Part shown: piece after piece, positions 16,147-61,587 of the stretch
Layout: the number at the start of each line of letters is the position of its first letter
Position numbering within the stretch: the first letter of the stretch is position 1
Source of the DNA: Escherichia phage Ge15
Sequence record: PP359696.1
DNA length: 64,000 bases
Reading direction: 5' to 3' (one strand)
Made by a program: the position numbers and the translations under genes
Notes under the pieces: generated by a model
The model's database searches: none
Told to the model about the DNA's origin: nothing
The model's input: the letters and a program-made list of their open reading frames with translations, nothing else

Positions 16147-17034
16147 ATGTCAGTAGTAATTAATAATGTCAATGCAGTAATTAAATCTTTAGTTAATAAA
16201 AAATTGAATGAATGGACTGTACTTCGTCGTGGAGAGCCAGATAAATTTTTTCATAGATTTAACCCAACTTTGGATTTGAATGTTATTGACAGAGATGTTC
16301 ATGCTGAAATTTTAGATAAATTTAAAGTTGATATTGGGTTTGGATTAGATAAACATTTACAACGAACAAACGGGTCTGGAATGGGTTTATCTAATCGCAT
16401 TATGAAAGCCCTTAATAAAATTGGAGCATTGTCTCGTATTAACGCGAGTGAAATCCTTCGTAATTATAATAAAGGATATGACCTTTACGGTCGACTAATG
16501 CCGAAATTATCATTTGACCAAATGATCGCAGATTTGTGGGAAAATCAACGACGATTATTAGCATTAGGCGCTAGATTAGCTAAAGGTCTAGATAAACAAA
16601 TGATTTTTAAGACCAATAATACAGAAGACCTTAAATGCTTTAAATTTAGTATTCGCGGCGATGATTATTACGTCAGAGCTCGCTCTACAGATTATGTTAA
16701 TATGGGGCATCATCTCTGTTTAGCTTTTGAAGTTTTAAAAGAAGCCGGAACATTAGAATATGTGTCTGGTGCTAAATGCCCGATTGGTTCAAGTTGTATT
16801 TTAATTTATCGCCCGGATGAATCCAGTTTAACTAAATTGCCTACAAAACCTGTACCAGTTCGTAGTAATGAAAAATATTCCGAGCAAATTGATTATTTTA
16901 ATAAGCAAATTGAAGAGCTGAATATTTCTATTCAACAGTATGACGATGAAATTTTCAGACTATCTGGATTGAGTAGTAAAGCTAAATCTGAGCGTGAAAA
17001 ATTAATTAAAATTGTTGATTTACTTAAATCTTAA
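16147..17034 (+). CDS. Hypothetical protein, member of coiled-coil-tailed paralog array
   Basis: ATG 16147 after GAGG; C-terminal approx 45-aa heptad/coiled-coil tail. Confidence 0.5.
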   Translation: MSVVINNVNAVIKSLVNKKLNEWTVLRRGEPDKFFHRFNPTLDLNVIDRDVHAEILDKFKVDIGFGLDKHLQRTNGSGMGLSNRIMKALNKIGALSRINASEILRNYNKGYDLYGRLMPKLSFDQMIADLWENQRRLLALGARLAKGLDKQMIFKTNNTEDLKCFKFSIRGDDYYVRARSTDYVNMGHHLCLAFEVLKEAGTLEYVSGAKCPIGSSCILIYRPDESSLTKLPTKPVPVRSNEKYSEQIDYFNKQIEELNISIQQYDDEIFRLSGLSSKAKSEREKLIKIVDLLKS

Positions 17035-17042
17035 GGAACACT

Positions 17043-18068
17043 ATGAAAACTCGTTCTCAAATTGAAGATATGGTTCGTAATGCCAGCTATACCCGTAATG
17101 TTATGACATTTTTGTGCCAAAATAATTTAGACCCTGATAAAGTTAATCGTGATATTCACTTTAAGTATATGAATAGCAGTGAATGGTTACGTCATTTTAA
17201 TGAAGCAGGGTATATTACTCAAATGACTGCTCGTGAGCAGCTCACCGATTTCTGTAAAACTATTGATTATAAAAATCCTCTATTTGTTCAAGGCGTTGGT
17301 CAAAGTAAGGTCGATTTATCATCTGGATTTTTCAATCCGAATCATTATCGTATTGAATGGAGATTTATTGCTCTGTTCCGTAGACAATTAAAGCAAATTT
17401 TGTCTACTGCTAGTCGATTAAAAGGCTCTGATATTAACTTAAAGAACCTGAAATTTGATGGTTATACTCTTCAGATGGAAGTAAGACCATTAAAAGAAAA
17501 TAATAGAACTGCACGAATTAGCTTTAAACCTAATACAAAAAATTCTCTTTCAATTTGTGAATGCCTTAAATCACAGTTGACAGAAGCATTTAAGTATATG
17601 GATGTTGTTGCTGCTGTTCAATCTAAGATTTTACCTCGTTTTGAACGATTTAAGTTAGATACAACATCATATGAACTTGATATGATCGTTTCATTTAAAT
17701 ACGATTTTTTGAGAAAGGACGAAGTCCCGCAAGAGAAAAAGCAGGAAGTACAAGATAACTTAAATTTAAATTTATCCAATTACTTATCAAACGATCCTAA
17801 ATTTTGGATGTATAGTTCAGGTAATAAAGATGCATGGAAATTTAATAAAGTGAATTTTCTTCCTATTGAAAATCCGAGTCTTAAACCTGTTGAAAAATGG
17901 CATGCAGATGCAATTGAGAAGTCTATCAAGGCAGTAGATGATGAACTCGTTAAAGCAACTAATGAAGTGCTAGAAGCTGAAAAGATGTTGGAAAAAGCTC
18001 AAGAAAAAGTCAAAAATCTTACGAAGCAACGTTCTAAACTGAACAATGCACTAAATGCACTGAACTAG
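17043..18068 (+). CDS. Hypothetical protein, member of coiled-coil-tailed paralog array
   Basis: 341 aa, N-terminus MKTR..., C-terminal coiled-coil tail ending ALNALN. Confidence 0.5.
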   Translation: MKTRSQIEDMVRNASYTRNVMTFLCQNNLDPDKVNRDIHFKYMNSSEWLRHFNEAGYITQMTAREQLTDFCKTIDYKNPLFVQGVGQSKVDLSSGFFNPNHYRIEWRFIALFRRQLKQILSTASRLKGSDINLKNLKFDGYTLQMEVRPLKENNRTARISFKPNTKNSLSICECLKSQLTEAFKYMDVVAAVQSKILPRFERFKLDTTSYELDMIVSFKYDFLRKDEVPQEKKQEVQDNLNLNLSNYLSNDPKFWMYSSGNKDAWKFNKVNFLPIENPSLKPVEKWHADAIEKSIKAVDDELVKATNEVLEAEKMLEKAQEKVKNLTKQRSKLNNALNALN

Positions 18069-18100
18069 TTTACATTGCCACAAGGATGTGGTATAATGTT
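18064..18100 (+). promoter_or_regulatory. T4-type early promoter
   Basis: TAGTTTAC ... TGTGGTATAAT. Confidence 0.7.
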
Positions 18101-18125
18101 CTTACTTTCTACTGAGGAGATTATT

Positions 18126-19127
18126 ATGACTCGTAACGAATATATCAAATCATTCAATAGCGTTATTGATGATAAAGCTATACCGATGTTTGGTCAAAAT
18201 ATCATTCTTTCTATTATCAATCAATGGCTCAATAGTGTTGATGCAAGTATTGTTTCTTCTGCTAAATTTATTCATGAAATTCGTAAAATTTCTAGCCGTG
18301 TAGATAAAGATGTTATCAAGAAAACTTTTAAAGAGTCTCGTCTTCTTTCATATTTGGTTAATCGGGATATTCTTGGTAATTTTGGGAAAGAAATTAAACG
18401 AACCAAAGATGTAGTAGGATATAATTGGTTCGGTGATGTTAATTCTTATCATCTTAATAATAAAGAAGACCCTGAGAATATTTTTACTCGTCGTTGGATT
18501 AGTAATTTCAGACTTTTCAAAGGACAAATTCTAAAATCAGCTTCTAAATTATGTTATGGCGATTATCGTCAAATTCATCCTTTGGCTTCTGATATGATTA
18601 TCGTAAAAGAATATGAGCTTGATGAAAATAAAGTAGCTATTTTTGTGAATTATGGATTTTTTACACCAAACGCTAACCAAAAGAATATTAATAAATTTTT
18701 CTCAATTGCTAGCACTATAACTCGTCAGTTAGAGACTGCATTACTTTGTATGGAAACAGTAGAAAATATTCATACATATCCTTTTAAGAATATATGCGGA
18801 TGGGAAGGATATAAAATTATAATTAGCCTTCGTGAAGTGAAACGTACGTACTCACCGACTGATAAAGAAATTTACCAACAAAAATGTGATGAAATTGTGA
18901 ATACTCCTAAAGAAGAAACTACCCTTGAAGAACTAATGGAATGTCTTGACGATTCGCCTGAACCGATAGAAATTCGTCCAGAAGTTATTGCACTAGAAAA
19001 AGCTTATAAAGAAGTTCTAGAAATTTCTAATAAAGCGCAGAAAGAATATGAGAAGGCTAAAAGGATTTGGGAAGAATCTGTTAATCGCCTTGATCGTTTG
19101 GAACAAGCTTTACAGTTAATTAAGTAA
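18126..19127 (+). CDS. Hypothetical protein, member of coiled-coil-tailed paralog array
   Basis: Start ATG 18126 after GAGGAG RBS and early promoter; C-terminal coiled coil ending ALQLIK. Confidence 0.5.
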   Translation: MTRNEYIKSFNSVIDDKAIPMFGQNIILSIINQWLNSVDASIVSSAKFIHEIRKISSRVDKDVIKKTFKESRLLSYLVNRDILGNFGKEIKRTKDVVGYNWFGDVNSYHLNNKEDPENIFTRRWISNFRLFKGQILKSASKLCYGDYRQIHPLASDMIIVKEYELDENKVAIFVNYGFFTPNANQKNINKFFSIASTITRQLETALLCMETVENIHTYPFKNICGWEGYKIIISLREVKRTYSPTDKEIYQQKCDEIVNTPKEETTLEELMECLDDSPEPIEIRPEVIALEKAYKEVLEISNKAQKEYEKAKRIWEESVNRLDRLEQALQLIK

Positions 19128-26090: not shown

Positions 26091-26159
26091 TTACATTCTG
26101 TATATTACCATTCTAAGCTATCGTTCCTTTCTTATCATTCCCTAAAATATTTTTCACAA

Positions 26160-26197
26160 AGTTGTTTACAACAAGCTCAAACTGTGGTATTATTAAC
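26160..26197 (+). promoter_or_regulatory. T4-type early promoter
   Basis: GTTGTTTAC ... TGTGGTATTATTAAC. Confidence 0.65.
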
Positions 26198-26223
26198 ACA
26201 TGAATTGCCTTTGAGGAATTGAT

Positions 26224-26406
26224 ATGGTTGTGGTTGATAAAGAAATTAAAAAGGGGCAGTATTATCTCATTAATGGTAATGCTGTTCGTGTTACTCATGT
26301 AAATAGTTTTGAAGTTTGCTATATTATACTCAAGTTACATAAACGCATGATTTGCGATCGTGCTGCATTTAGTTCAGTTGCTAAGGAAATTAAACTCCAT
26401 GGGTAA
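26224..26406 (+). CDS. Hypothetical small protein
   Basis: 60 aa, GAGG RBS, early promoter upstream. Confidence 0.4.
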   Translation: MVVVDKEIKKGQYYLINGNAVRVTHVNSFEVCYIILKLHKRMICDRAAFSSVAKEIKLHG

Positions 26407-46714: not shown

Positions 46715-47008
46715 ATGAAAAAATTTATCTTTGCTACAATTTTTGCTTTAGCTTCTTGTGCTGCTCAGCCTGCTATGGCAGGTTATGATAAAGATTTGTG
46801 CGAATGGTCTATGACTGCTGATCAGACTGAGGTTGAAACTCAAATTGAAGCGGATATTATGAATATTGTTGAGCGCGATCGTCCTGAAATGAAAGCTGAA
46901 GTGCAAAAACAGCTTAAGTCTGGTGGTGTAATGCAGTATAATTATGTTCTGTATTGCGATAAAAACTTTAATAACAAAAATATCATCGCTGAAGTGGTAG
47001 GTGAATAA
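46715..47008 (+). CDS. sp: Spackle-like periplasmic protein (putative)
   Basis: 97 aa with cleavable signal peptide MKKFIFATIFALASCAAQPAMA; size/position match T4 sp (61.3); own early promoter. Confidence 0.55.
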   Translation: MKKFIFATIFALASCAAQPAMAGYDKDLCEWSMTADQTEVETQIEADIMNIVERDRPEMKAEVQKQLKSGGVMQYNYVLYCDKNFNNKNIIAEVVGE

Positions 47009-47634
47009 TGCTTTATCAAATGCACAAGTGCAAAGATACATACAAATATAAAGGTGCCCAGTGTTATATCATTAATCGTGAAAACGCGGGTCCAGGTCAT
47101 TCGCATCAATCACGGTTTGTATTCGTTAAAAACAATGAAATTATAGCAGTTGCTAATTACATGCTTGTGACTAATGATGTTAATCCGGTGCCTTTTACAT
47201 ATTATAATCTAATGGATTTGGCGTACGATTATAATTGGTTTAATCATGACACTTTGGCTCATATCGAAGGCGTAGGATTTGACATCTCTTATTCTAGTTA
47301 CTCGTTGTGTCCTATGAGCCGAGCTCATAAAGAGCCTGAATATTTTTCATTTCGTCGGCGTGTAGACTTTAAACGCAGTACAGAGTATGTCGGTGGAATA
47401 TTTGTTAAAGATAATCGAATTACTCGCATTATTTATCCTTTGGGCTGTGGTCAAAAAGATATTGATGTTGATTTAGACTTTACTGAAAACATCATTAATC
47501 ATATTGCTTCTGTGTATTTTGATATTGATCACAAAATTGTGATATGTGGATATGAATTACCATCAGAAAAACAGTCTAAAGTAAATGTTTCTATTGATGA
47601 CCAAATTTTTAATGCTTTTATGAATAAAGGTTAA
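47008..47634 (+). CDS. Hypothetical protein (61.2 position)
   Basis: 208 aa; C-terminal tail SIDDQIFNAFMNKG shared with next ORF. Confidence 0.5.
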   Translation: MLYQMHKCKDTYKYKGAQCYIINRENAGPGHSHQSRFVFVKNNEIIAVANYMLVTNDVNPVPFTYYNLMDLAYDYNWFNHDTLAHIEGVGFDISYSSYSLCPMSRAHKEPEYFSFRRRVDFKRSTEYVGGIFVKDNRITRIIYPLGCGQKDIDVDLDFTENIINHIASVYFDIDHKIVICGYELPSEKQSKVNVSIDDQIFNAFMNKG

Positions 47635-47635
47635 T

Positions 47636-47992
47636 ATGTATAGTTCTGAATTTTCATATTTAAAAATGGAAAAAATTTCATACGATTTTATAGATGAAAA
47701 GGTTTATTACAGTTTCCATGAACCACGTTTTAATAGTGAGGTTGGGTTTATTGTAGTAAAAGACAATTTCATTTTAAAGATATATTCAGCATTAAAGGAT
47801 TTTCACTACGAAAATATTAACCTAAAATTTGATAAAGAAAACGTTCGTAATTGTGCAGTAACAATTACAGGAAATAAAGGCACATGTGTTATGCTATCTG
47901 ATGAAATTAATGATTTGCTAAATGATGCCGAAAAGGTTGCTATTCCATCTATTGATGACCAAATTTTTAATGCTTTTATGAATAGAGGTTAA
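47636..47992 (+). CDS. Hypothetical protein (61.1 position)
   Basis: 118 aa; C-terminal tail SIDDQIFNAFMNRG duplicated from upstream ORF. Confidence 0.5.
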   Translation: MYSSEFSYLKMEKISYDFIDEKVYYSFHEPRFNSEVGFIVVKDNFILKIYSALKDFHYENINLKFDKENVRNCAVTITGNKGTCVMLSDEINDLLNDAEKVAIPSIDDQIFNAFMNRG

Positions 47993-48160: not shown

Positions 48161-49189
48161 ATGTCATCAATACCTTGGATTGATAATGAGTTTGCATACC
48201 GTGCATTGGCTCATTTACCTAAATTCGCACAAGTAAATAATAGTTCAACTTTTAAATTACGGTTTAGATGCCCTGTTTGTGGAGATTCAAAAACCGACCA
48301 AAATAAAGCCCGTGGATGGTATTATGGTGATAATAATGAAGGAAATATTCATTGTTATAACTGTAACTATCATGCACCAATCGGAATATATTTAAAGGAG
48401 TTTGAACCTGATTTATATCGTGAGTATATCTTTGAAATAAGAAAAGAAAAAGGTAAAAGTCGTCCAGTAGAAAAACCTAAAGAACTTCCTAAACAACCCG
48501 AGAAGAAAATAATTAAATCTCTTCCGTCATGTGTTAGATTAGATAAACTGACGGAAGACCATCCAATTATAAAATACATAAAAGCTCGCTGTATTCCAAA
48601 GGATAAATGGAAATATCTTTGGTTTACAACTGAATGGCCTAAATTAGTTAATAGCATAGCGCCGGGAACATATAAAAAGGAAATACCTGAGCCTCGTCTT
48701 GTTATTCCAATTTATAATGCTAATGGAAAAGCTGAGTCGTTTCAAGGACGTGCATTAAAGAAAGATGCTCCTCAAAAATATATCACCATCAAAGCTTATC
48801 CTGAAGCAACAAAAATCTATGGAGTCGAACGGGTTAAAGATGGTGATGTATATGTTCTAGAAGGACCTATAGATTCACTTTTTATTGAAAATGGTATAGC
48901 TATTACGGGTGGTCAATTAGACCTAGAAGTTGTTCCATTTAAAGATAGACGCGTGTGGGTTTTAGATAATGAACCTCGTCACCCTGACACTATTAAGCGA
49001 ATGACTAAATTAGTTGATGCAGGAGAAAGGGTTATGTTTTGGGACAAATCTCCCTGGAAATCAAAAGATGTTAATGATATGATTAGAAAGGAAGGTGCAA
49101 CCCCTGAACAAATTATGGAATATATGAAAAATAATATTGCGCAGGGGTTGATGGCTAAAATGCGGCTATCTAAATATGCTAAGATTTAA
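48161..49189 (+). CDS. 61: DNA primase gp61
   Basis: 342 aa; N-terminal zinc ribbon CPVCGDS...CYNCNYH, Toprim-like C-terminal region. Confidence 0.93.
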   Translation: MSSIPWIDNEFAYRALAHLPKFAQVNNSSTFKLRFRCPVCGDSKTDQNKARGWYYGDNNEGNIHCYNCNYHAPIGIYLKEFEPDLYREYIFEIRKEKGKSRPVEKPKELPKQPEKKIIKSLPSCVRLDKLTEDHPIIKYIKARCIPKDKWKYLWFTTEWPKLVNSIAPGTYKKEIPEPRLVIPIYNANGKAESFQGRALKKDAPQKYITIKAYPEATKIYGVERVKDGDVYVLEGPIDSLFIENGIAITGGQLDLEVVPFKDRRVWVLDNEPRHPDTIKRMTKLVDAGERVMFWDKSPWKSKDVNDMIRKEGATPEQIMEYMKNNIAQGLMAKMRLSKYAKI

Positions 49190-49386
49190 ATTAACCCAAC
49201 TAAAGCAAATGCTAAATCTACGAATGTATCAAGAGTAATTACTGGAATATTAACACCATGAGCAATAGCAATTGGTGATAAAACAAAATTCCAGAGTAAA
49301 ATTCCTACCATAGCAGAAATAGTAAAAGCTATACGTTTTTTATTACCTTTTATGGCATTAACAAGTGCCATTAATTTTTGTACCAT
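49186..49386 (-). CDS. Hypothetical small membrane protein (reverse strand)
   Basis: 66 aa, two hydrophobic helices; GGAGGA RBS 4 nt upstream of ATG on minus strand; lies in the 61-56 intergenic space rather than inside a + strand gene. Confidence 0.4.
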   Translation of the reverse strand: MVQKLMALVNAIKGNKKRIAFTISAMVGILLWNFVLSPIAIAHGVNIPVITLDTFVDLAFALVGLI

Positions 49387-49399
49387 ATGTCCTCCTTAT

Positions 49400-49423
49400 T
49401 GCTTTATATATTTATTGTATAAT
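49400..49423 (+). promoter_or_regulatory. MotA-dependent middle promoter upstream of gene 56
   Basis: Mot box TATTGCTTTA, 11-nt spacer, TATAAT. Confidence 0.55.
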
Positions 49424-49457
49424 TAATCTACTAACCCATGAATTGAAAGGAAAAATA

Positions 49458-49976
49458 ATGGCATACTTTAATGAATGTTCACAACTGATCGAAGGCGCTG
49501 ATAAAGCTCAAAATGAATACTGGGATATTCTCGGTGATGAAAAAGACCCACTACAGGTTATGCTTGATATGCAGAAATCTTTGCAGGTTCGTTTAGCTAA
49601 AGATAAACCTGAATATAACCGTCATCCTGATGATTTGGCTACTGCAGGCGAAGTTGTTGATTGGCTGCGTAATCAAAAAGATTATATTGACGATGAATTC
49701 CGTGAACTTCTGACTTCTCTTGGCGGCATGAGCAATGGTGAAAAAGATGCATCTGCTGTATGGAAGCCTTGGAAAGCTCAACATGGTGAACGCCGTGAAA
49801 CTCTAATTACTGATTTGTCTCCGCAAGATCAGTTGGAAATTAAATTCGAAATGATTGATATTCTTCATTTCGTTCTGAACATGTTCCAAGGTCTTGGTCT
49901 TACGGCTGAAGAAATCTTTAAACTTTATTATCTGAAAAATGCTGAAAACTTCGCTCGTCAAGACCGAGGTTATTGA
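49458..49976 (+). CDS. 56: dCTPase/dUTPase gp56 (dCTP pyrophosphatase)
   Basis: 172 aa from ATG 49458; MotA-box middle promoter upstream; MazG-like all-alpha NTP pyrophosphatase features; position after 61. Confidence 0.85.
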   Translation: MAYFNECSQLIEGADKAQNEYWDILGDEKDPLQVMLDMQKSLQVRLAKDKPEYNRHPDDLATAGEVVDWLRNQKDYIDDEFRELLTSLGGMSNGEKDASAVWKPWKAQHGERRETLITDLSPQDQLEIKFEMIDILHFVLNMFQGLGLTAEEIFKLYYLKNAENFARQDRGY

Positions 49977-50176
49977 TGGCTCGTTTAAATAAACGCCAGC
50001 TTAAGAAAGCCCGCAAGAAACGTATTGACCAGCTATTTAAAAATTATGATAAGGAGCTCGTATGTGAGCTCTTATCTAATCAGCTTCGTGTGGTTGATTG
50101 GGTTGTAGAAGAAGGTCCTGATGAAATTTTTGTCAGCGAAGAAGCCTTAAAATTAATTATAGAACATTCAAAATGA
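49973..50176 (+). CDS. Hypothetical basic protein
   Basis: 67 aa, N-terminal KRQLKKARKKR. Confidence 0.4.
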   Translation: MMARLNKRQLKKARKKRIDQLFKNYDKELVCELLSNQLRVVDWVVEEGPDEIFVSEEALKLIIEHSK

Positions 50177-50346
50177 AAATATCCAAAGAAGAATTTATTA
50201 GACGTCAAAAAGCTTTAATTAATTTATACGAGTGGTATGCTTATCAGCTTAAAGTAGATAGCTCTAATATAAATGCTGTAATGGCTTTATATAAACAAAT
50301 TCAAGATGAACACGAATTCCTGGCACAAGTTTTCATTGAAGACTGA
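50173..50346 (+). CDS. Hypothetical small protein
   Basis: 57-aa ORF not in track; ends immediately before soc late promoter. Confidence 0.3.
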   Translation: MKISKEEFIRRQKALINLYEWYAYQLKVDSSNINAVMALYKQIQDEHEFLAQVFIED

Positions 50347-50354
50347 TATAAATA
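50347..50354 (+). promoter_or_regulatory. T4 late promoter of soc
   Basis: Exact TATAAATA about 30 nt upstream of soc ATG. Confidence 0.8.
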
Positions 50355-50385: not shown

Positions 50386-50622
50386 ATGGGTGGTTTCGTT
50401 AACATCAAGACCTTTACTCATCCAGCAGGTGAAGGCAAAGAAGTTAAAGGTATGGAAGTTTCTGTAGCATTTGATGTATATTCAAATGAACACCGTATTG
50501 CAGATTCTCATTATCAAATCTTTCCGTCAGAAAAAGCAGCTTATTCTGATGTAGTTTCCGATGCAGCAACTTGGAAAACTAAGAATGCTGCAATGTTTAC
50601 ACCTACAGAAATAGGTGGTTAA
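50386..50622 (+). CDS. soc: Small outer capsid protein Soc
   Basis: 78 aa; VNIKTF...SVAF...FPSEKAAYS matches T4 Soc as recalled; TATAAATA late promoter and AAAGGAG RBS; terminator downstream. Confidence 0.85.
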   Translation: MGGFVNIKTFTHPAGEGKEVKGMEVSVAFDVYSNEHRIADSHYQIFPSEKAAYSDVVSDAATWKTKNAAMFTPTEIGG

Positions 50623-61215: not shown

Positions 61216-61587
61216 ATGTTTAAAATCGGTAAGAAGTATCGTATTCGCAAAGGCGAAGAAAAGAAATATCTAATGTCTGCTATTTATAGGAATGGTTCTA
61301 TTAATGCTGTAATATCTACAAGCGAATTTATCGTTGAAGATATGAAAGGTCATAATGTTACAATGATTAGTACAGCATCCGGAAATGATGGAAAAATTCT
61401 TCACAGTTTTCAGAGTAATGTTCTAATTTATGATGAAGAATTTGACTTCTTTGAAGAAGTCACAGAAGATTTTGATTTTGAATGCACTATTACCATGAAA
61501 TCTGGCGACCCTCTTTCTTTTACAGTTAAAGATGAAAGAAGCCGTTTAAGAATTATTAGTCTCCTTCAAGCCATTAAATTTAAGTGA
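61216..61587 (+). CDS. Hypothetical protein
   Basis: 123 aa. Confidence 0.45.
   Translation: MFKIGKKYRIRKGEEKKYLMSAIYRNGSINAVISTSEFIVEDMKGHNVTMISTASGNDGKILHSFQSNVLIYDEEFDFFEEVTEDFDFECTITMKSGDPLSFTVKDERSRLRIISLLQAIKFK

Follow-up and report, generated by a model that had tools for sequence, protein, structure and literature searches.

The closest described counterpart of the locus studied here is the Tequatrovirus gene between the primase and dCTPase genes that belongs to PHROG 2024; it is the same gene, in the same position and orientation, and we see no difference between the two. In phage T4 this interval also houses dam, which sits between genes 61 and 56, and the small open reading frame (ORF) lies in the 309 bp that separate gene 61 from dam, where the T4 reference has nothing annotated. 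More distant relatives are the 'b-type' ORFs (VR25_032, CPT_Marfa_028, PM2_030) of Gapriver-, Dhaka-, Kanagawa-, Mosuguk- and Marfavirus, which encode 63-69 aa from the same convergent primase-side position. Two further sets of phage genes bear comparison: T4 late genes such as soc, which likewise have a TATAAATA-type octamer closely followed by a strong Shine-Dalgarno site, and small single-pass lysis proteins (holins and the antiholin T4 RI), which the product of the small ORF resembles in size, predicted membrane insertion, probable late timing and polar membrane-span residues. T4 early and middle transcripts share one polarity, and late transcripts may have either (PMC2988020).

Here we analyze this interval in a 64,000-nucleotide stretch of Escherichia phage Ge15 (PP359696.1), the whole of which we call the window, following an earlier note that had seen in it an unusual antisense membrane ORF standing in place of dam. 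We consider it likely that the small ORF is a true gene, conserved among T-even-type phages, and no dam substitute, putatively transcribed late and with a predicted inner-membrane product.

Results

Organization of the interval between genes 61 and 56

The interval and its flanking genes contain the following features:

48161-49189, plus strand: gene 61 (DNA primase), a 342-aa ORF matching PHROG 47 DNA primase at E=1.6e-106
49186-49386, minus strand: the small ORF, 66 aa, ATG start, matching PHROG 2024 at E=5.4e-31
49352-49381, plus strand: terminator-like hairpin and T-run within the opening codons of the small ORF, picked up in both the window and T4 by a pattern scan (weak evidence)
49390-49395, minus strand: Shine-Dalgarno site GGAGGA, read from the sequence, 3 nt upstream of the small-ORF ATG
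49400-49423, plus strand: gene 56 middle promoter, with MotA box TGCTTTA at 49400-49406 and -10 element TATAAT at 49418-49423
49409-49416, minus strand: late-promoter-like octamer AATAAATA, which is TATAAATA with A at -13, ending 22 nt before the small-ORF ATG
49458-49976, plus strand: gene 56 (dCTPase/dUTPase), matching PHROG 173 NTP pyrophosphohydrolase at E=1.1e-46 and homologous to T4 gene 56

Much of what the earlier note had read from the letters is borne out by this layout. The end of gene 61 at 49189 and the start of gene 56 at 49458 both match ORF coordinates, the latter being taken as the ATG internal to a longer GTG-started ORF, and the 66-aa minus-strand ORF that it described is present between them. 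The claimed convergence and stop overlap with gene 61 amount to 2 shared nucleotides, the small ORF ending in 49186-49188 and gene 61 in 49187-49189; T4 gp61 is almost identical to the window gene 61 product. The small ORF was also described as the sole convincing minus-strand ORF of the window, and it is indeed alone in being free-standing: all the other minus-strand ORFs of at least 55 aa lie largely within plus-strand ORFs, the lowest overlap among them being 40%, against 13% for the small ORF. A minus-strand ORF at 26113-26298 was considered as a second candidate and rejected as hydrophilic, without supporting features and partly overlapping plus-strand ORFs. The GGAGGA site is where the note had put it except that its distance from the ATG is 3 nt, not 4. 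The MotA-box middle promoter of gene 56, claimed to be near the 5' end of the small ORF, lies directly upstream of that end; it aligns with the T4 dam-56 intergenic region and is homologous to T4 P(M)16.53, whose mot-box and -10 element are marked in the T4 annotation and whose transcript is named as oriA primer RNA.

Absence of dam and history of the locus

The absence of dam from the window was confirmed by tblastn with T4 Dam, for which the best window match had E=0.68 and the positive control on T4 had E=8e-177, and by the lack of a DPPY motif in all frames of the window, where matches to [DNS]PP[YFW] are confined to ORFs of at most 107 aa. In Shigella phage SH-2, the closest complete genome (~94-98% identical to the window), a genome-wide search returned no Dam (best E=1.0). 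The position of T4 dam in the 56-61 interval, which the earlier note gave, agrees with the T4 annotation.

The further step taken in that note, namely that Ge15 acquired a small antisense membrane ORF in place of dam, draws on this absence from the window and from the closest complete genome, and on the fact that the small ORF fills most of the gene 61-56 gap. The T4 genome contradicts it: an orthologue with 62 of 66 residues identical to the window ORF lies at NC_000866 17738-17938 (4239-4439 in L001), beside dam. The same pairing occurs in T2 and other dam-positive phages, and the other genera examined all have the ORF without dam at the site. Moreover, the intergenic sequence of the window corresponds to two T4 pieces, the beginning of the ORF-dam spacer and, directly after it, the dam-56 spacer in full, as if the dam cassette were removed. 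Because the small ORF is present in T4, locus replacement is refuted, and we give it virtually no credence. A sequencing artefact is an unlikely source of the T4 copy, since the ORF is also found in T2, RB51 and many dam-positive genomes.

T4 differs at the locus only by a ~0.9 kb dam cassette, which lies between the upstream signals of the small ORF and the gene 56 middle promoter and so separates the ORF's promoter motif from that promoter; the cassette occupies the same intergenic interval as the small ORF and is a separate, optional insertion beyond the latter's promoter motif. T4-type Dam at ≥90% identity occurs in ~182 records, compared with ~502 records with the Tequatrovirus-type small ORF, and the contiguous arrangement seen in the window occurs in 319 records. 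Judged by these record counts, absence of dam is the majority state in Tequatrovirus and dam is an optional cassette. The common and probably ancestral layout consists of the primase gene and the small ORF converging on each other, followed by the gene 56 middle promoter; T4 and about one third of Tequatrovirus genomes have an inserted ~0.9 kb dam cassette with its own early promoter. At the dam insertion site, two unrelated genes are found in phage Marfa.

As a side observation, the site between the small ORF and gene 56 is a small hot spot for accessory cassettes, with dam in T4 and other genes in Marfa and Kosakonia phage 305.

Conservation and coding character of the small ORF

The PHROG 2024 profile, described as a Tevenvirinae small membrane protein, matches the product over its full length (residues 2-66 against profile positions 1-65 of 65), and ime09 and SHFML-26 encode copies with 100% identity to the window protein. 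Annotated counterparts such as RB32ORF030w (RB51) and UCR75184.1 (vB_EcoM_C2-3) carry the names 'hypothetical protein' or 'putative membrane protein', the records of T4, T2 and JS98 that were examined leave the ORF without annotation, and no NCBI or UniProt accession was found for the exact T4 product sequence. The earlier note had called an antisense ORF at this place unusual; this is contradicted by 692 phage records that carry the small ORF, 686 of them at ≥80% of its length, and by a diverged subfamily in 130 records. At least some Gaprivervirus records have both types, and VR25 has the two in tandem.

The small ORF adjoins the primase 3' end in Tequatro-, Mosig-, Gapriver-, Dhaka-, Kanagawa-, Mosuguk- and Marfavirus and in two metagenomic lineages, with diverged relatives in the same convergent primase-side position in at least eight genera of T4-like phages. 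It converges with the primase gene at every locus examined, the 3' ends overlapping in most lineages, and the arrangement in which it faces the primase gene and lies upstream of gene 56 is common to C2-3, T4, ST0, VR25, L009 and L011. The 'b-type' ORF shares its architecture and the invariant W-N...P...G...P residues with the window ORF, from which it differs in its low sequence identity (~23% only) and its less hydrophobic C-terminus; this wider subfamily was reached only via the tandem paralogue in VR25. A profile HMM search of 1.84 billion representative proteins returned only 6 matches, and an IMG/VR search with the single protein returned only two related loci.

Could the small ORF nonetheless be spurious, its frame open by chance in AT-rich intergenic DNA and kept for reasons other than coding? 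The frame is short, and it is missing from the annotation of the T4, T2 and JS98 records examined. It stays open, however, in more than 800 records over many genera, and the substitution pattern is that of coding DNA: between lineages dN/dS is 0.11-0.43, and the differences between the window and Mosigvirus phage ST0 at codon positions 1/2/3 number 29/12/42. A 12-sequence alignment that extends down to 23% identity is nearly gapless, with one or two single-residue gaps only in the shared region, and W32, N33, P38, G44 and P48 are invariant across it. The conservation of the Shine-Dalgarno site and promoter motif described below likewise speaks against a chance frame. On these comparisons the small ORF is under purifying selection, and we hold the spurious-frame reading to be very improbable. 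In the literature on T4-like phages we found no report of transcription, translation or phenotype for the small ORF.

Upstream signals and putative late expression

A GGAG-type site lies 3-7 nt upstream of the ATG in 10 of the 11 other copies compared, the exception being the tandem second copy in VR25 (VR25_b), which has GGTGGA. Farther upstream, TATAAATA or a one-base variant of it stands 14-23 nt before the ATG in every first-in-line copy examined (11 lineages). The canonical TATAAATA is found upstream of the ORF in Marfa, Q7622 and Kosakonia 305, AATAAATA in the window, ST0, JS98 and L011, GATAAATA in T4 and PM2, CATAAATA in VR25 and TH40, and TATTAATA in L009. The first-in-line 'b-type' copies thus share late-promoter motifs with the window ORF, three of them canonical; the second of the tandem VR25 copies lacks a late-promoter motif of its own.

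The window octamer matches the consensus at 7 of 8 positions, compared with 8 of 8 in three other genera. It is the first base that departs in the window and T4. Set against T4 late genes with the gp55-dependent TATAAATA, the motif of the small ORF is a candidate promoter; A(-13) is the commonest late-promoter variant, present in 9 of 50 T4 late promoters listed (PMC2988020). The ATAAATA 7-mer is rare in the 64-kb window, with 5 occurrences per strand and 10 on both strands, and the window's late gene soc, whose ATG is at 50386, is preceded at a distance of 39 nt by a TATAAATA that starts at 50347. Every early and middle gene in the window lies on the strand opposite to the small ORF. The ORF's place on the late-only strand together with a late octamer ~20 nt upstream of the ATG leads us to expect gp55-dependent transcription, and the conservation of the motif points the same way; from these features of the DNA we infer late expression. 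Transcription by gp55-RNA polymerase would set in after replication onset, from a start near 49403, and would give an mRNA leader of ~17 nt carrying the strong Shine-Dalgarno site. As to a sigma-70 promoter, a single weak minus-strand match lies far upstream inside gene 56 and was set aside in favor of the late motif.

The earlier note had guessed at a late-expressed membrane effector or toxin-like peptide. The late-membrane part of this guess is indirectly supported by the conserved late motif and strand polarity, and we found nothing in support of the toxin-like part.

Convergent transcription and the gene 56 promoter

A pattern scan found no terminator-like site on the minus strand downstream of the small ORF, and because no terminator follows the ORF on its strand, the late transcript would probably run on antisense into gene 61. 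A transcript of the opposite strand that overlaps the small ORF would be the 3' end of the gene 61 mRNA or its read-through. These relations raise the question of whether the main role of the locus lies in RNA or DNA, with the peptide secondary: a late antisense transcript might silence the primase mRNA, or the segment might serve as a terminator or spacer before the gene 56/oriA promoter. The convergence with gene 61, with 3' ends overlapping in most lineages examined, and the missing minus-strand terminator would suit such a role, as would the gene 61-strand terminator-like hairpin within the small ORF and the position of the minus-strand late motif, which in the window falls between the MotA box and the -10 element of the gene 56 middle promoter.

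The hairpin itself (49352-49371) has a fold energy of -8.9 kcal/mol (z=-2.2) and is confined to Tequatrovirus, being not conserved in Mosigvirus or Gaprivervirus; with this distribution and its modest fold, we rejected it as the cause of the ORF's conservation. Rfam contains no known RNA family matching the small-ORF region. The protein sequence is under purifying selection at down to 23% identity and retains invariant residues, and a purely RNA-level role is insufficient because it leaves this selection unexplained. We therefore regard a main role in RNA or DNA as quite improbable; an RNA-level role and a protein function could coexist.

Predicted product

The AlphaFold model of the 66-aa product, built on a shallow alignment of 9 sequences, has helices at residues 2-12, 16-42 and 52-63 (pLDDT 76). 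The product is hydrophobic, with a hydrophobic core at approximately residues 19-42; five Lys/Arg fall in residues 4-18, no basic residue follows position 18, and the C-terminus reads ...DLAFALVGLI. We propose an inner-membrane protein whose basic amphipathic N-terminal helix would lie in the cytoplasm, as is expected from the positive-inside rule with five Lys/Arg in residues 4-18. This helix would be followed by one transmembrane helix (~19-42) with the invariant Trp-Asn and a Pro five residues on, and by a short acidic, hydrophobic C-terminal helix putatively on the periplasmic side. Of the two hydrophobic helices claimed in the earlier note, the one at ~19-42 is thus a clear transmembrane helix, and a second of full length is not borne out, the helix at 52-63 in the AlphaFold model being short.

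Searches for relatives outside the family were negative. Pfam, NCBIfam and PADLOC gave no match for the product even at E up to 10; a sequence profile search of the PDB yielded NqrE alone, as a match by chance (E=0.03); Foldseek found no match to the model in the PDB and, in BFVD, family members only, plus weak matches to small helical proteins.

A further reading is that of a holin-like or toxin-like hole-former, a late protein that would oligomerize in the inner membrane and depolarize or permeabilize it. The product is small, its transmembrane helix carries the polar Asn33 and its C-terminal helix Asp52 and Asp56, a late-promoter motif lies upstream, and UniProt labels one family member, from phage OE5505, 'Holin', apparently by automated naming. 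No Pfam or NCBIfam holin model matches, however, and the product, which is without a sequence or profile match to holins or antiholins, differs from them in being charged N-terminally rather than C-terminally: it ends in a hydrophobic GLI without a charged tail, and its putative periplasmic part comprises only ~24 residues. The gene also lies outside any lysis cassette, adjoining no lysis gene; its neighbors are the primase and dCTPase genes, and no endolysin or spanin gene is next to it. T4-like phages already encode the holin T. Taken together, these points make a hole-former unlikely.

Discussion

The small ORF is a gene of an ordinary kind that had been catalogued before, and the mild surprise lies only in its omission from the T4 reference annotation. 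Rather than forming holes, its predicted product would most plausibly have an accessory part in modulating a late process at the envelope, for example lysis timing or lysis inhibition, which we put forward tentatively as a reading of the modeled protein; the polar Asn in mid-membrane suggests that the protein acts through contacts between helices, either its own or those of another membrane protein. On a bolder and rather doubtful reading, the T4 annotation would be missing a conserved late inner-membrane protein with a real late role, such as tuning the holin T/antiholin RI pair or another membrane step, and its transcript could also silence primase mRNA.

For the T4 relatives as a group, lacking dam is a common polymorphism, and the antisense ORF belongs among the hypothetical genes already catalogued and is no new insertion. 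The records of NC_000866 (T4), T2 and JS98 are without annotation of a gene that is real by comparative evidence, under selection and probably expressed late, and the small ORF would be a cheap knockout target for a lysis or membrane phenotype.

Locus layout and absence of dam

The window belongs to a T4-like phage, genus Tequatrovirus, and a 461-bp query across the locus matched 503 phage records, with Shigella phage SH-2 as the top match at 99.8% identity. The gene ends, the minus-strand ORF, the overlapping stop codons and the gene 56 promoter were read from the window sequence and the ORF listing, and they lie as the earlier note had described them:

48161-49189, plus strand: gene 61 (primase), from the ORF listing and a PHROG match
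49186-49386, minus strand: small ORF of 66 aa, between gene 61 and gene 56
49400-49406 (TGCTTTA) and 49418-49423 (TATAAT): gene 56 promoter, directly past the small ORF 5' end
49458-49976, plus strand: gene 56 (dCTPase), from the ORF listing and a PHROG match

The stop codons of the small ORF and gene 61 overlap by two bases. A GGAGGA Shine-Dalgarno site precedes the ATG as reported, at a measured spacing of 3 nt rather than 4 nt. Among minus-strand ORFs of at least 55 aa in the window only the small ORF is not mostly buried in plus-strand genes, in keeping with its description as the sole convincing ORF on that strand. Two small ORFs (67 aa, 49973-50176; 57 aa, 50173-50346) occupy 49973-50346 between gene 56 and soc; T4 carries the homing endonuclease gene segF at this position downstream of gene 56, and Tequatrovirus vB_EcoM_C2-3 (C2-3) is arranged like the window. 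The adjacent ORFs 47008-47634 (208 aa, equal in length to T4 61.2) and 47636-47992 (118 aa) share the terminal motif SIDDQIFNAFMN(K/R)G, suggestive of a partial duplication in tandem; in phage C2-3 the 118-aa form alone occupies this place.

The reported absence of dam was borne out, as a T4 Dam query found no homologue in the window (best E=0.68) and all of its frames lack a DPPY motif. Whether dam lies elsewhere in the genome was checked on the relative SH-2, whose complete genome was assembled from its consecutive segments and shares ~94-98% identity with the window throughout; no Dam homologue was found anywhere in it (best E=1.0; T4 control E=8e-177). The dam-less arrangement is the majority state in Tequatrovirus, since T4-type Dam at ≥90% identity occurs in ~182 phage records, against ~502 with the Tequatrovirus-type copy of the small ORF, and 319 records have a contiguous dam-less arrangement exactly like that of the window.

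Comparison with T4

In the T4 reference (NC_000866), dam (16846-17625) and gene 61 (17935-18963) are separated by 309 bp without annotation, within which positions 17738-17938 on the plus strand (4239-4439 of L001, the T4 locus from that record) hold a 66-aa ORF orthologous to the small ORF, on the strand opposite to gene 61. It is identical to the window ORF at 62 of 66 residues, and its stop likewise overlaps that of gene 61. The ORF likewise lacks annotation in X01416, the original record of 1984, neither NCBI nor UniProt has an accession for the exact T4 product, and the copies in T2 (NC_054931), the T4 strain record KJ477684 and JS98 carry no annotation. The first part of the 71-bp window spacer aligns with the beginning of that between the ORF and dam in T4 (Shine-Dalgarno site and ATATTTAT motif) and the rest with the whole T4 dam-56 spacer (MotA box, -10 element and gene 56 Shine-Dalgarno site). 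We therefore read T4 as differing by a ~0.9 kb cassette, comprising dam and its own early promoter P(E)17.40, whose insertion separates the signals upstream of the small ORF from the middle promoter of gene 56. The proposal that the small ORF is a new antisense replacement for dam was rejected, as T4 has both genes and the window spacer equals the T4 spacers without the cassette.

At the small-ORF/gene 56 site dam is absent in Mosig-, Gapriver-, Dhaka-, Kanagawa- and Mosugukvirus, and phage Marfa has two unrelated hypothetical genes there. On the simplest reading the dam-less layout is the ancestral one and this site a minor hot spot for insertions. Insertions between the small ORF start and gene 56 (window 49387-49457) comprise T4 dam and the Marfa genes (L019 371-1472); Kosakonia phage 305 (L022 544-1478) has two pieces annotated NTP pyrophosphohydrolase with a homing endonuclease gene between them, and phage Q7622 (L020 1166-1393) an extra short ORF, also so annotated.

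Conservation of the small ORF

The rival reading that the ORF is spurious has to be weighed against its distribution and coding pattern. By tblastn it is present in 692 phage records (≥80% of its length in 686), including T2, T4 (unannotated), RB51 (RB32ORF030w) and ~190 from Mosigvirus and Gaprivervirus at <60% identity; all examined copies adjoin the primase gene, and two metagenomic lineages (68% and 52% identity) share the layout of the window. Between lineages dN/dS is 0.11-0.43 (Nei-Gojobori), and the window and Mosigvirus phage ST0 differ in the manner of coding sequence, with 29 changes at first, 12 at second and 42 at third codon positions. The protein matches PHROG 2024, which has no assigned function (E=5e-31).

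Gaprivervirus VR25 carries two tandem copies (L004 2495-2692 and 2701-2901) that are ~23% identical, the second of which defines a diverged b-type subfamily of 130 records from Gapriver-, Dhaka-, Marfa-, Kanagawa-, Mosugukvirus and others, adjoining the primase 3' end in all loci examined. The b-type was the only type found in Dhaka-, Kanagawa-, Mosuguk- and Marfavirus (L018-L022), and in Gaprivervirus TH40 the second copy appears degraded. An alignment of twelve representatives needs no more than one or two gaps, each of a single residue, across the region they share; W32, N33, P38, G44 and P48 are invariant, and an acidic residue lies near position 52 in all but one copy. By these comparative measures the small ORF is a real gene, and we consider it likely to be a conserved gene, independent of dam, for a membrane protein that is probably made late.

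Predicted late expression

The early and middle genes lie on one strand and the small ORF on the other. All T4 early and middle transcripts run in a single direction, and late ones alone may have either polarity (Geiduschek and Kassavetis, PMC2988020); T4 late promoters are TATAAATA, with 32 of 50 listed sites perfect and nine carrying A at -13 (PMC2988020). Two features bear on expression:

49416-49409, minus strand: late-promoter motif AATAAATA, ending 22 nt before the ATG
49352-49381, plus strand: terminator-like hairpin (49352-49371) and T-run on the gene 61 strand, within the small ORF first codons

The late-promoter motif sits inside the gene 56 middle promoter. T4 has GATAAATA at an equal distance from the ATG; AATAAATA recurs upstream of the small ORF in ST0, JS98 and one metagenomic lineage (L011), with the variants CATAAATA in VR25 and TH40, GATAAATA in PM2 and TATTAATA in the other lineage (L009), and the canonical TATAAATA in Marfa, Q7622 and Kosakonia 305. 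All of these end 14-23 nt before the ATG; the motif keeps its spacing relative to the ATG rather than to the MotA box, and the surrounding sequence has diverged. The second tandem VR25 copy lacks a separate motif. Each strand of the 64-kb window has only five copies of the heptamer ATAAATA, and the late gene soc (50386-50622), an internal control, has TATAAATA starting at 50347. From polarity and the conserved motif we predict that late, gp55-dependent transcription starts near 49403. The minus strand of the window has a single canonical TATAAATA (61281-61288), inside the plus-strand ORF 61216-61587 and with no free-standing minus-strand ORF downstream; it may have arisen by chance or act as a late promoter in antisense.

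Because no terminator-like site was found downstream on the minus strand, the transcript probably runs on into gene 61 in antisense. A second rival is a role mainly at the RNA level (antisense to primase, or terminator), to which this read-through and the hairpin (stem ATGGCATT-AACA-AGTGCCAT, then TAATTTTTGT) are relevant. The hairpin is also present in T4 and absent in Mosigvirus and Gaprivervirus, and the region matched no Rfam family.

Predicted product and role

An AlphaFold model (9-sequence alignment, pLDDT 76) places helices at residues 2-12, 16-42 and 52-63. Since five Lys or Arg fall within residues 4-18 and none follow position 18, the positive-inside rule predicts a cytoplasmic N-terminus and ~24 periplasmic residues at the end. 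Of the two hydrophobic helices originally proposed, the transmembrane helix stands; the C-terminal helix is short, in the b-type only moderately hydrophobic, and likelier to be interfacial than a second span. Midway along the transmembrane helix, the invariant Trp-Asn and the Pro that follows it suggest that the protein associates, helix to helix, with itself or a partner.

Profile, structure and defence-system libraries gave no functional lead. The third rival, a hole-former or toxin, recalls the sole UniProt 'Holin' label in the family, on a phage OE5505 entry with no visible experimental basis; unlike holins, the protein has neither a charged C-terminal tail, nor a lysis-cassette position, nor a holin-model match. 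We favor a late-expressed, single-pass inner-membrane accessory protein, N-terminus inside, that would act by association of its transmembrane helix. The likeliest target would be a late step at the envelope, such as lysis timing, and we give this specific role low confidence.

The original sequence observation was thus correct, and the gene is not unusual, being on record in PHROG 2024 and in hundreds of 'hypothetical protein' entries, widespread in T4-like phages and ordinary in kind. Of modest interest are its omission from the T4, T2 and JS98 records examined and its conserved late-promoter motif, nested in the window within the gene 56 middle promoter.
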